From: Perkinsus olseni
Taxonomy: Eukaryota
NCBI GenBank assembly: GCA_013115125.1
Contig: JABANN010000005.1
Span: forward strand, 1-64,000
Length of the DNA stretch: 64,000 nt
Direction of reading: 5' to 3'
The translations under genes and the position numbers were made by a program. Below are positions 5,548 through 23,267 of this stretch, in pieces (within the stretch, counting starts at the first letter, position 1; every line of letters begins with the position of its first letter). Below the pieces are notes generated by a model that was not told where the DNA came from, did no database searches, and was given only the letters and a program-made list of their open reading frames with translations.

Positions 5548-6514
5548 CTACATTAGACGCTCCCTCTGGTCATCCTCGTCCTCGTCGGAGACCTTGCCTC
5601 CACCAATGAAAGTGACAACTGTCGATGCAGCGAGGAGCACGAATACGATCTGAAATACAGAATACAATCAATGAGGTATGTGGCACATCGATCACGGACC
5701 CAGGATGCTGCACAGAGCCACTGAACCAACTGCCCTATCTCCCAGCTAAGCTGAGCATTTAGTCGGCACCAGAGCCCATCCTGATCACAGCGAAGTAGCG
5801 GCGCGGCAGTAGATAGACGAATCAGCTTACAGCTTGATCAAAGAACGGTGTGTCGGACATACAATACTCCCACTCCTCGAGGTGCTGGGCAGTCTCGGGC
5901 TCACGGGCCAGGCGAATCATCTCACGAAAAGTCTGTCATCGGAACAGTCGACAGGGGAATGCCGTGCGAAAGGCACTTACCTGGAATTCTTTGCAGTAGG
6001 GCCTGGTGAACATCTTAGTAGCCCTCTCATAACCACCACCGTGGCATTCACCTTCACTGTAAGATCTAGCGAATGACTTGAATAAGTCATCGACCAGATC
6101 CTGGGCATAGCGATCTCTAGAAGGCACTAGGGTGATCTCACCACGGTCGAGTCTTAGCTTGTAGAATGTGATGGACCAATGGCAGAGGGAGATGGCGATC
6201 ACCAACCAGCATATGGTCAGGACGGCGGAGAAGCCCCCATGCACGAAGGGAAGGGAGCCGGCCTTGGAGTTAATGGCGGAAAAGGCGAGACCAGAAGCAC
6301 AAAGCATGAGGATGAAGACTGAGCTAATGGTAGCTGCGTCGGTACGCAGTACACCGAAGAAGTCGTAGTATAAGGGGTTGTAGGAGATGAGGGTGAGGGT
6401 CATGGTGAGTGCTATGGCGAAGAGGATGAGGAGGCCGTTGATGGCCATGTAGATAGGGCCGAATACACCATTGAGGTAAGGCATAGGGAATGGGTATATA
6501 CAATGGCCTAGCAT
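5548..6514 (-). CDS. Four-TM, tetraspanin-like membrane protein (spliced)
   Basis: Three TM helices in ORF 5936-6607, a Cys-containing large loop, and a fourth TM in the last exon (IVFVLLAASTVVTFI...RLM*); no canonical CCG motif; start at 6514 inferred. Confidence 0.5.
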
Positions 6515-6694
6515 GGTGATACAGTAAACAGTGATCAGGGGTACAACAGCGGCAGCCCTTATCAAAGAAAAGGCTTTGAAAACAGCATAACTCAGCTTCA
6601 ATTCCACCAGCCTGGAAAAGTGCAGAACTGCGCTGTTGATTTAGCGCTCGCCCTAGAGTAGAACGCATGATCAGCGTCACTTGCGACACATACC

Positions 6695-8745
6695 ATGGTA
6701 ACTCTCTTCCCTGGAAAGTCCTACGATAGGGCTGGACAATTGGGTAGATAGTACGTATCTCGAGGGACCGTGATGCGGTGGTCAGGTGAGGGAAGCTTCG
6801 GTGCCGTCCTGACGGTCTATGAAGCCGACTCCGGTGCAGAGTATGCAGCTAAGAGGTTCGAGGTAGTGGTACTGTGTAGTATACTAAGATCAAGTCTGCA
6901 CCAATGCCGCTGTAGTTGAATGAAGATGATGGTTGTACATTGAGCAGTGGTGCATTGATAGAGGTGTCCTTCCTCAGCGCTATGAGGATGGCTAGCCTGG
7001 ACAAGAAGGGAATAATTCATCTTGTAGGGCAGCTTGGGGCCGATGGGTTATCCTGAGTCATACCCTCAGGAGGATGTATGTGAGCTCACCGAAGAGGGTG
7101 AGGATATTGTCTGTGCCGTAGTGCCCAAATACAACTGTAGTTTAGAGGAGGCTATACAAGGTATCAAGAAGGGGTACAGCGGGCAGAGGAGGTCGCTCGT
7201 CTCTCCACCTCCATTATAGTACTGGGGCAGGTGGAGCCCTTACGTCCAATCGTGCTAGACTGCCCATTGCCATATCCCTACTAGAGGCAGTGGCAGTACT
7301 ACATAGCAATGGTGTGGTCCATAGAGACATCAAGAGTGCTAACGTTATGCTAACCGAAGAGCTCAGACCTGTGGGTGCCGCTTTGTATGATTTGACTCAT
7401 CAACAGGGAAGGTGCTTATCGACTTTTCACTAGCCAAGTACATGCCCGAGGGGGCGGTCCTCTCTGAGGAAGCTCCATCAGGCAGCGCTGAGCATACAGG
7501 ATCTGTTGGCACGCCAACCTATATGGCACCTGAGCTAGTTGAGGCAAATGGGGAGAATCTTAGGTCACGCTCGTAACCTACACAGCAGATGCATTGCTGC
7601 TTGTCAGATACGATAGTCGAGTAGATAGCTGGTCAGTTGGAGTAGTCCTGCTGGAGCTGTTCACGGGTAATGATACGTTGGCCTACACAGTGGTGATGGT
7701 GACTCAGGGAAGGTGATGGAAGAATGCAAGGATAGGGCAGCATTTAGAATGATCGATGAGGCTAAGGCACGTATGTCGGACAAACCCGTACCCAGGATCA
7801 TCAAAGGCCTTCTGGAGGTGGCTACTGCTGCCTCTTCCCGTCCTCGGGAGCTCGATAGTGGCAGGTGGAGCCCGACAAGAGACTAAAATGTAGTGATGCG
7901 TACAAGAAACTACTCCAGTGCAGCAGCCATGCAGACAAGGAGAATTCAAATGAAGGGTTCTTACGTAATGTGGTCGGACGACGCGGATGAATACGAGGAG
8001 GAAGGTTGCTCTCAGTACCTGATAGTTCGAAGCCTTTAAGAGATTACTTTGGCAACTACGTGATAGCGGGTGGGGCACACGCTGGCGAATTGCAGGAGAT
8101 CCGACGATTCTATCACGTGCTGGAGATGACTAATCCCACCACCATCAAAGCAGCCATGTGCGGTCATATAGTACCACACCATCCCGGCATCACGACCTTT
8201 ATACAGGTACTACAGCTCACTATTCGATCAATCGAATGAGGATAAGCCCCCGCCTCTCCATCTACTGTTACTAGCTCAGAAGATTTACGAGCCCCGGACT
8301 ATTGGTACTGATGCTTGGGCCTGAGGTCCGAATCCCTTCCTCAGACCTCGTCACCATCGACGAGTTCGATGAGGATGATCCTCAGCTGTCTGACTTTGAT
8401 ATTGATGAATACATGAAAGACGAGATGACTATAATGAAGGCAGCTAATTGGTAAAGCCACTCTCCTGGCTGCTTAATGACTATGCGTACTTCGTAGGTGT
8501 TGCTTAGTGCTGCCTCCGTCGAGTGAGGCTGAGGCTCATTCTCTAGTCGGGAAGGATGCTGTCCAAGGCTCCTGTAAGAGGGCTCTGAAAGGTGGGGTGG
8601 GGTGTTAGAGAGGGTACGGGTGAAGTAGGTGAAGGCAGGTAAGAGGAAGAGACGGGCAGAGAAGCAAACCCAGAAGAGGCGGAGACATGCAGCGGCTATC
8701 AGGCAACACGAAGGAGAATCTGATGATGAATACACTGATGATTGA
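6695..8745 (+). CDS. Ser/Thr protein kinase with C-terminal cyclin-like box and basic NLS (multi-exon)
   Basis: Spliced motifs GEGSFGAV, YAAK, SSGALIEVSFL, HRDIKSANVML, DFSLAK, GTPTYMAPE, DSWSVGVVLLELFTG, PDKRL; continues in frame to LLLAQKIYE..DEMTIMKAANW and KRKRRAEKQTQKRRR; TGA at 8743-8745. Confidence 0.85.
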
Positions 8746-8907
8746 TGACCGTAGTATAGTGACCCTCCAACCATGCATAGTAATTCATCACTCTAAGTGT
8801 AGTATTTCCATTCAGAACTGTCGACTCGAGTTCTGCTAAGGTCATCGGCCTTACCGAGGTCGTATGTGGGCTTCGACAACCTACTACCACTCCTTCCCTT
8901 GCTCAGT

Positions 8908-17463: not shown

Positions 17464-19105
17464 ATGAGCCGTGGTACAGCTCTTTCATCGAGCGGACCAG
17501 AGAGCATAAGCAACACACGAGGGATGACGGATGATGCTGTCCCAAACAGCAAGGCTGAAAACAAGCCCAAGTCGGAGCCTGCACCTCGGATTAGGTGGAT
17601 ACGCACTGCCGCTGTCGATGAGGAGACCGGGCTCTCGTAAGGGGCTTTCTCAAGGCTTGAGGCCTTACCTTCATAATGCAGGTACCATACAGATCACTAC
17701 GGTGGTGTGGCCGTGGACCGGTTCCCCGATAATCTCATGGACGCATCATCGTGTATTGACGCTTTGTCGAAGCTGTGTAGTCGGTGCAAGAGGGAAGGGG
17801 TCCTCACTGGAGCATTCTGGGTTAGAATAGAGGAGGAGCGTTACCATTTGGTAGGTTGCGGTGAATTCTTGGTATTATGGCAGTCCGCATGGTAGTTACC
17901 ACTGCTGTTAAAAGAACAGCCGCCATCGAACGGTCTTCCCCACTTCCGTTTTCACCACGCCGATCCGACCTACGCTGAGATTGTCGGATGGACCAACCCA
18001 AACAGAGAGGATCGTGTACCCCACCAGGCTAGCCATACCGTTGGCGTTGGAGCTATCGTACTGGACCAAACAAGTACCGCCATACCCGTATACTCTCCTA
18101 CCTGGACCGTTTCTCTTGTCGCAGATAGAGTGCTGCTAGTGCAGGAAGCCACAGGTCCCGCTGCTAGTATCAAATTATGGAAGTTGGTGACAGGTCTAGT
18201 GGAAGCAGGAGAGGAAATTGAAGATGCTGCTGTTCGTGAAGTCCACGAGGAAACCGGAATTACCGCGACCTTCGAGCGAGTTCTCGCCGTCCGCCATTCT
18301 CATAAGGGCACGGCTGAGCTCGGCAACAGATCGGATCTTTTCTGGGTGTGCATACTACGAGTGGATGAAGACAATGACGCCAATAAAGCTGTGCTCAACC
18401 TTCCGGACGGGGAGCTGCCACGGAGTTATCTCCAAGCTAGTGAGATCAAGGAAGCAAGATTTGTGCCCTACAAACAGCTGCATGAAATTACAGGTAGTAA
18501 TAACAATAACAGTAGTATGAGCATAAGCCGTTTTGTTCCGTGAAACCCAGGCAGCATCCATTGATTGAAGTGAGATCGTGTACTGTTATTTTAGGGGTAC
18601 CGGAAGGTAGTGTAATGTGGTGTATATACAAGCAGGCTCAGCGTTATATACAAACCGGCGAGGGCGGACTTAAAAGCGTCCTCGTCCCTTCTGGGAATCT
18701 TGGACCCCAACTTACTCATATTTATTATTAGACCCTCGCGCAGTGTACACGCTGTGATGTAGAGCGCCAGCAACTCCCTCTTGTTTCCCTGGACGAGGCA
18801 TGCGGACCGAGTGATCCACCCAGCCGCAGTCCCTCGAATGTTACTCTTTTTTCTACAACTTCTGTGTGGTTTCACCTCCCATCATCGGAATGGAGTCGTT
18901 CTTGGGTAGTGGTCAATCACGTCGCTGTCGAGTTGTGTCGGGAAGGTTGTGTTTCCGTTTGTTAGACGTTCCAAAGGGCGGCACTATGTGGTGCGTGTAC
19001 GAGCATATCCAGCGGTATATCGACAGAAAGGAAGGAGGCATAGACTCGATGTCCCTTGCGGGGCAAGCGTCTGATAATCAGAGATTATATTTCAGCATCA
19101 AGTGA
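17464..19105 (+). CDS. NUDT6-like Nudix hydrolase with two alternative last exons (18595-18731 and 18966-19105)
   Basis: DHYGGV, FRFHHA, ASHTVGVGAIV, VLLVQE, Nudix box GLVEAGEEIEDAAVREVHEETGI, SDLFWVC; start approximate. Confidence 0.88.

Positions 19106-20116: not shown

Positions 20117-23267
<3,151 letters not shown>

Follow-up and report, generated by a model that had tools for sequence, protein, structure and literature searches.

The 64,000-nucleotide stretch of Perkinsus olseni DNA analysed here (contig JABANN010000005.1, positions 1 to 64,000; hereafter the window) carries, on the forward strand at 6695-8745, a kinase gene whose 477-residue product continues in frame from a protein kinase into a C-terminal domain with a predicted cyclin-box fold. 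The gene was assembled from the short plus-strand open frames between positions 6000 and 9500, which are chained by GT..AG introns of 40-70 nucleotides (nt), and comprises 14 exons and 13 GT..AG introns. It begins with the ATG at 6695 and ends with the TGA at 8743-8745, and its exons lie at 6695-6743, 6786-6862, 6916-7023, 7070-7160, 7231-7370, 7412-7563, 7608-7666, 7708-7817, 7865-7964, 8016-8157, 8207-8304, 8345-8450, 8497-8591 and 8639-8745. This model rests on its translation, on seven introns that are seen spliced and on a separate database protein with the same exon chain. Any one of the 13 introns, if retained, brings in an in-frame stop. Removal of intron 1 (6744-6785; joint 6743/6786 in a spliced contig) gives the N-terminus MVTLFPGKSYDRAGQLGEGSFG, and the intron at 7371-7411 was placed as in annotated relatives. 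All of the peptide strings reported in the first-pass annotation of this DNA are present in the sequence and lie in one frame through the GT..AG introns.

The separate protein (P0003, 465 residues, 'hypothetical protein') is the product of an NCBI gene model built independently on a different P. olseni assembly. It has the same exon chain and the same stop, is identical to the window protein at 449 of 465 residues and starts at an internal Met; P0003 numbering plus 12 gives window-protein numbering. Word-index searches with the exon sequence 8018-8155 and with P0003 residues 284-465 gave only three P. olseni proteins, which for the exon were P0001, P0002 and P0003. The first two of these are partial models named 'Cdk9' by their source, and P0001 reads into the intron at 8158-8206.

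The window protein consists of a protein kinase domain (residues 17-276; 6786..7906, plus strand), which harbors seven introns and is defined by Pfam Pkinase and conserved catalytic columns, followed by a variable linker (7907..8062, plus strand), a single predicted cyclin-box fold of five main helices (residues 312-412; 8063..8500, plus strand) and a tail. The cyclin box is interrupted by introns 8158-8206, 8305-8344 and 8451-8496. The linker, delimited by the family alignment and by low confidence at the start of the structural model, ranges from 27 to 98 residues across the family, with a median of 57. In the models, the approximately 65 residues after the box are either of low confidence or form a basic helix. 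They include a basic stretch, KRKRRAEKQTQKRRRH (8641..8688, plus strand), which is followed by an acidic end and resembles a nuclear localization signal on the sequence only. A basic tail is also retained in fragments of other Perkinsus-like proteins (P0121, P0122), and the stretch KRKRRAEKQTQKRRRH suggests nuclear import.

Transcript evidence was taken from contigs of three public runs placed on 6600-8800; the kind of run was guessed and RNA is not on record for them, and the exact GT..AG skips in the contigs point to spliced RNA. Contig X1 (1545 nt) and the shorter contigs X2 and X3 skip seven of the 13 introns exactly. Introns 6744-6785, 7024-7069, 7818-7864 and 7965-8015 are spliced in the contigs, intron 6863-6915 is spliced in X1 and X3, and introns 8305-8344 and 8451-8496 are spliced in X1 and X2. 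Removal of the 51-nt intron 7965..8015 (plus strand; GTAATG..CTCAG) joins the kinase to the C-terminal part, and its retention would stop the frame at residue 304. The resulting joint, 7964/8016, is present in X1. The joint speaks against transcripts that end or change frame before 8017, the outcome that the first-pass annotation had named as refuting its reading.

X1 also retains five introns, four in the kinase (7161-7230, 7371-7411, 7564-7607 and 7667-7707) and one in the tail, the 49-nt intron 8158..8206 (plus strand) inside the cyclin box. X1 runs only to 8552, and intron 8592-8638, the last one, lies beyond its coverage. No kinase can be made unless the four kinase introns that X1 retains are spliced out, and X1 is therefore not a picture of the mature mRNA; it is a mix of spliced and unspliced paths. 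Five retained introns beside seven spliced ones suggest either that incompletely processed RNA is plentiful or that the assembly mixed different paths.

A search with the kinase part of the protein returned 318 proteins at E ≤ 1e-10, most of them 420-480 residues long, with named relatives from diatoms, the haptophyte Diacronema and the bolidophyte Tetraparma, and also from Perkinsus. Three alignments were used: a 40-row family alignment (A1), a 26-row alignment of the C-terminal region (A2) and a 107-row alignment (A3), the last leaving out kinase-search matches shorter than about 380 residues as well as P0012 and P0015. The window protein is 31-41% identical to the 39 aligned relatives and has every family motif, namely DFS and GT.TY.APE in the kinase and T..AA..Y, A.[KR]..E and E..[IL] in the C-terminal domain. 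P0012 and P0015 (578 and 580 residues) represent a subfamily in which an N-terminal RWD domain precedes the same kinase and C-terminal box.

The kinase domain matches Pfam Pkinase with E 4.9e-36 over P0003 residues 5-264, and single exons match Pkinase too. Its catalytic elements are Lys39 (6851-6853), the HRD motif (7320-7328), the DFS motif (7421-7429) and the T-loop residue Thr184 (7496-7498), all on the plus strand. The catalytic Lys is found in 106/107 relatives, the αC Glu, the catalytic-loop Asn, the Asp of DFx and the Glu of APE are each found in 107/107, and the three HRD residues are kept in 106, 107 and 107 of the 107 rows. With all catalytic residues in place, the kinase is probably active. 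A Thr stands 10 residues before the APE alanine in 101/107 rows, a spacing that we take to be that of Thr160 in cyclin-dependent kinase 2 (CDK2). The αC region, TLSSGALIEVSFLSAM (6937..6984, plus strand; family alignments), has the PSTAIRE-like family consensus LGTLREISILRLL, in which R, E and S are kept in 104, 107 and 102 of the 107 rows, respectively. The first-pass annotation had cautioned that the activation segment is not canonical for a CDK. In the family the third DFx position is Ser in 106/107 rows, and the segment carries the motif GT.TY.APE. The catalytic loop of the window protein reads HRDIKSAN, and the CDK-type combination of DFG and HRDLKPxN is absent.

The C-terminal domain is a conserved part of this family, being present in 99/107 relatives (at least 70 of 92 reference positions filled). 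A phmmer search of the whole library with the 147-residue C-terminal stretch found 21 proteins at E ≤ 1e-3. They belong to this family, either complete or as fragments, and among the fragments are Perkinsus-like ones in which box and basic tail are both retained. The domain profile, which includes the own-species row, matches three window exons colinearly, 7991-8236 at profile positions 8-50, 8172-8321 at 49-81 and 8275-8451 at 81-114. The best-kept columns, in P0003 numbering, are T at 326 (97/107), A at 330 (99/107), C at 350 (99/107), A at 354 (100/107), K or R at 356 (101/107), E at 359 (99/107), E at 390 (96/107) and an aromatic residue (Y, F, W or H) at 399 (97/107). They are arranged as T..(+4)A..(+7)Y, A-x-K-x-x-E and E..[IL].....[YFW], with the aromatic residue at +9 from the E. 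We take this pattern to be the signature of cyclin-box helices 2, 3 and 5, and regard it as a lead and not a test. The signature residues of the window protein are T338, A342, A366, K368 (8280-8282), E371 (8289-8291) and E402 (8422-8424), on the plus strand. The helix-3 Lys and helix-5 Glu singled out in the first-pass annotation are thus K368 and E402, and the corresponding columns hold K/R in 101/107 rows and E in 96/107.

To obtain a structural model of the domain we used AlphaFold with the 26 rows of A2, which gave five main helices with a predicted local distance difference test score (pLDDT) of 83.3, a predicted template modelling score of 0.71 and about 95 residues with pLDDT > 90; a single-sequence model of P0003 (pLDDT 35) was unusable. 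When the model was compared with 48,161 representative chains in VIA-align, 27 chains reached Z ≥ 8, a score to be read in the knowledge that unrelated helical models may score close to Z 13. The best match is cyclin A2 (9qcv_L; Z 10.9, root mean square deviation 3.2 Å over 94 residues), where the model overlays chain residues 206-305, the N-terminal box. Cyclin A (7luo_C), cyclin B1 and yeast cyclin C match with Z 10.7 each, cyclin D3 with Z 10.5 and TFIIB chains with Z about 9. Judged by entry title, every chain from rank 1 to rank 37 is a cyclin, TFIIB/Brf, Orc6 or Rb pocket structure, and the first unrelated chain has Z 5.8. Among the Foldseek matches listed against the PDB, 44 of 48 are cyclin or CDK-cyclin entries and the other four are TFIIB/Brf. 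Given the uniform VIA-align list and the match to the N-terminal box, we take the fold to be a cyclin box.

Sequence profiles give leads in the same direction. Cyclin_N (PF00134) is matched by 6/26 C-terminal pieces (best E 0.01), by 6/40 full proteins and, at E ≤ 1, by 12/107 full proteins, and is the sole non-kinase Pfam family matched by more than a few relatives. The three Cyclin_N matches with listed scores have 12.3-16 bits and run from profile position 72 or 80 to 126 of 127. For two members, the C-terminus has Cyclin_N clusters as its language-model neighbours (0.87-0.89); being below 0.9, these values are treated as a lead only. The second cyclin box, Pfam Cyclin_C, has no match in P0003 or the 107 relatives; P0127 (532 residues), a repetitive protein with Cyclin_C stretches, was set aside as low-complexity. 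Collectively, the predicted model supports a C-terminal domain made of one cyclin-box fold, albeit one that does not reach the Pfam Cyclin_N threshold, and the in-frame fusion of a kinase to such a fold put forward in the first-pass annotation is upheld by the splice joint, the AlphaFold model and the VIA-align and Foldseek lists.

The family extends to giant viruses. A scan of viral contigs with alignment A1 produced 311 pattern matches, 211 of them relatives, and 80 were kept. At six giant-virus loci (L001-L004, L006 and L007) an open reading frame of 351-371 residues encodes a kinase that is 30-38% identical, and the viral C-termini match the A2 profile at E 4e-14 to 5e-11. These viral members keep T..AA..Y, A.K.YETE and EE..I, and judged by their sequences the six genes belong to the P. 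olseni kinase-box family. The viral forms differ in their compactness: the linker is short, and the loop that leads from helix 3 to helix 5 is reduced. They also have LGALREISI in the kinase and T.TYRAPE in the activation segment. An Acanthamoeba polyphaga moumouvirus protein, L7RCF3, is named 'Cyclin-domain fused to serine-threonine kinase'; its structural match to our domain model is weak (Foldseek E 0.81), and Foldseek against BFVD gave nothing at E ≤ 1e-3. In the ESM Atlas, the C-terminus of a diatom member lies nearest (0.92) to a cluster of 125-residue giant-virus proteins without a Pfam family, which may be stand-alone boxes.

From the spliced fusion, the conservation of the domain throughout the family, the predicted cyclin fold and the intact catalytic residues we infer that the gene encodes a probably nuclear and probably active Ser/Thr kinase with a CDK/CMGC-like N-lobe and a flexibly linked, diverged N-type cyclin box that acts in cis, a reading to which we assign a probability of about one half. 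In cyclins it is the N-terminal box that makes contact with the PSTAIRE helix. Here, the box would fold back on the αC/T-loop side of its own kinase, as a cyclin does on a CDK, and would hold the kinase in an active shape such that a separate cyclin is not needed; it might also add a substrate-docking surface. The conserved αC helix, the T-loop Thr, the K/E pair and a linker that can reach the N-lobe fit this arrangement, and high conservation of αC is expected of a helix with a fixed partner.

Several results weigh against this reading, and those that concern the nature of the domain bear as well on an alternative in which the conserved five-helix module is merely cyclin-like, serving stability, localisation or the binding of nucleic acid or partners, with no cyclin ancestry. 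None of the sequence searches reaches significance. In the Cyclin_N check named in the first-pass annotation, the window protein had no match at E ≤ 10, whether searched whole, by exon or as the C-terminal piece, and Pfam searches of single exons and of P0003 returned kinase families only. The Cyclin_N matches of the relatives lie below the gathering score of 23 bits (best E 2.4e-4) and none of the six giant-virus C-termini matches Cyclin_N (0/6). Against PDB sequences, phmmer with the 147-residue stretch gave 0 matches at E ≤ 10, and the 26-row profile gave six at E ≤ 10, with no cyclin among them and a ferritin as the best (E 0.3). Foldseek against the PDB likewise found nothing at E ≤ 1e-3 (best 0.08), helical folds match easily, and a single box without a Cyclin_C match in Pfam is what a merely cyclin-like module could show. 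However, the top 37 structural matches fall in one fold class with cyclin N-terminal boxes first, the weak Cyclin_N matches recur in independent relatives, at the same profile positions in the three with listed ranges, and the invariant residues coincide with what we take to be the cyclin signature. We thus judge a module of other ancestry to be unlikely.

The remaining difficulties for a self-contained CDK-like kinase lie in the kinase and in the transcripts. The P. olseni αC helix, SGALIEVSFLSAM, has Ile57 (6955-6957) where 104/107 relatives keep the αC Arg, which in the PSTAIRE helix of CDK2 contacts the T-loop phosphate; the T-loop Thr is retained in P. olseni despite this replacement. Moreover, the LREI motif is present in MAPKs too. 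In a single-sequence PDB search the best matches were STK33, PAK4-7 and GCN2, with CDK13 at only 8e-13, and in a family-profile search CDPK, CDK and PAK1 tied at 1e-38 to 1e-42, with most CDK rows matching only profile positions 9-226 (CDK4 to 228 and CDK9 to 243). The kinase is hence, by these comparisons, not clearly a CDK, and since CDKs are not ranked above other kinases the source name 'Cdk9' is unsupported. Of the CDK assignment in the first-pass annotation, the αC motif and the spacing of the T-loop Thr do look CDK/CMGC-like, while the PDB searches do not place CDKs over CAMK or PAK kinases. A further point is that intron 8158-8206 is unspliced in the sole contig that covers it and is read into by P0001. 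Retained, this intron introduces a stop at residue 370 and leaves half a cyclin box, and it is conceivable that the extension is mostly not made, with retention of 8158-8206 or of 7965-8015 giving half-box or kinase-only proteins and the fusion being a minor isoform. The same contig, however, retains four introns that any kinase must lose, removal of the introns after 8206 is seen in two runs and the C-terminal domain is conserved throughout the family, all of which make a mostly truncated product highly improbable.

A different possibility is that the domain is a cyclin box that acts in trans, in a head-to-tail dimer, on another CDK or by recruiting a substrate or partner, with the kinase working independently of it. 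The linker is long and variable enough (27-98 residues) for contacts in cis or in trans, and the cyclin folds of TFIIB, Rb and Orc6, which match our model with Z 6.6-9.5, bind non-kinase partners. In addition, published kinase-cyclin fusions have been suggested, in the available text of the reports, to work chiefly as cyclins, with an inactive kinase serving as scaffold (PMC3019232, 10.1101/168187). The present family differs from those fusions in keeping every catalytic residue, its αC helix is unusually conserved, and the very short linkers of the giant-virus members, in open reading frames of 351-371 residues, favour a compact single-chain unit. Action in trans therefore seems to us possible, if well short of probable.

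If the box does act in cis, the family may, as a tentative extension of that reading, represent an old class of protists and giant viruses: self-contained CDK-like kinases in which a built-in box replaces the oscillating cyclin, which were passed between viruses and hosts and which are switched without cyclin supply. Control of a CDK by a separate cyclin is the textbook rule. Such kinases would instead be switched by their own abundance, by T-loop phosphorylation or by nuclear import, and giant viruses and their algal or perkinsid hosts would have exchanged the gene. A box that Pfam misses is missed by routine annotation, as the names 'Cdk9' and 'hypothetical' of the P. olseni proteins illustrate. 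Because the family occurs in diatoms and haptophytes, which are algae of ecological importance, in a shellfish parasite and in protist-infecting giant viruses, it bears on the control of the cell cycle or transcription and on virus-host gene exchange.

On the minus strand of the window, 5936-6640 holds a 234-residue open frame that resembles a multi-pass membrane protein and has no Pfam match; its 5' end faces the kinase ATG head to head across only about 55 bases. The 80-residue N-terminal extension of P0001 is read from the plus strand across this 5936-6640 region and looks like an annotation artefact. A NUDIX domain (Pfam E 1e-17) is encoded by an open frame at 17896-18540 on the plus strand. 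At 21965-22603 on the minus strand, the kinase section of the family profile picks out two open frames (E 3.7e-9 and 0.014), and these represent a second, unrelated-looking protein kinase gene, on the strand opposite to the kinase-box gene.

The joining of a kinase to a cyclin is, as a type of architecture, already known. The first-pass annotation had not recognized it as a characterised family, a statement that is overtaken by fusions in print for Phytophthora, ciliates, Theileria and Stentor (PMC3019232, 10.1101/168187). In Phytophthora infestans, four CDKs (e.g. PITG_21617) carry C-terminal Cyclin_N and Cyclin_C domains and were confirmed by reverse transcription PCR, and relatives of these fusions occur in ciliates and Theileria (Judelson and Ah-Fong 2010, PMC3019232). 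According to the available text of that report, the Phytophthora-type fusions all have Asp replaced by Asn in subdomain VIb and are therefore thought to be inactive (PMC3019232). Stentor has two CDKs with cyclin domains, one of which is a likely pseudokinase (10.1101/168187). The P. olseni family shares with the Phytophthora and ciliate proteins the order of kinase and then cyclin-fold sequence in one chain and an occurrence in stramenopiles and alveolates, and for one published fusion of the Phytophthora, ciliate or Stentor type the idea of self-activation has been raised. The Phytophthora-type fusions, as described in the text available, have two boxes with strong Pfam matches, whereas the P. 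olseni family has one box with sub-threshold matches and no Cyclin_C, and the HRD Asp that is Asn in the former is retained in 107/107 rows of the latter. On these descriptions, the P. olseni family is distinct from the oomycete and ciliate fusions in having one box, hidden from Pfam, on a catalytically complete kinase.

Diatom kinases offer another point of contact. The hCDK1-7 proteins of Phaeodactylum have divergent cyclin-binding motifs and were left unplaced in the CDK tree, and several of them are cell-cycle regulated (Huysman et al. 2010, PMC2872877). Like relatives of the P. olseni protein they are diatom kinases, and a cyclin box is not mentioned for them in the available text of that paper (PMC2872877); the two groups may overlap. 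In the text of papers, our literature search led only to the Phytophthora, Stentor and diatom hCDK reports and found nothing in print on a single-box kinase family, and we regard the family as undescribed.

There is also a structural parallel with CDK-cyclin pairs. The predicted domain superposes on the CDK-touching N-terminal box in such pairs (9qcv_L, 4y72_B and 3g33_B; Z 10.3-10.9), and the P. olseni protein shares with CDK2-cyclin A, as we take the features of that complex to be, the K and E positions of the box and a T-loop Thr at CDK-like spacing; its αC helix resembles PSTAIRE in the family consensus. The pairs are made of two chains, with two-box cyclins, a DFG motif and a CMGC C-lobe, whereas the P. 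olseni protein has one chain, one box, DFS, HRDIKxxN and GTPTYxAPE. An intact kinase with its own single cyclin box, conserved as a family, would be a natural single-chain version of the CDK-cyclin switch and a small, naturally occurring model for studying the effect of an N-terminal cyclin box on its own upon a kinase.

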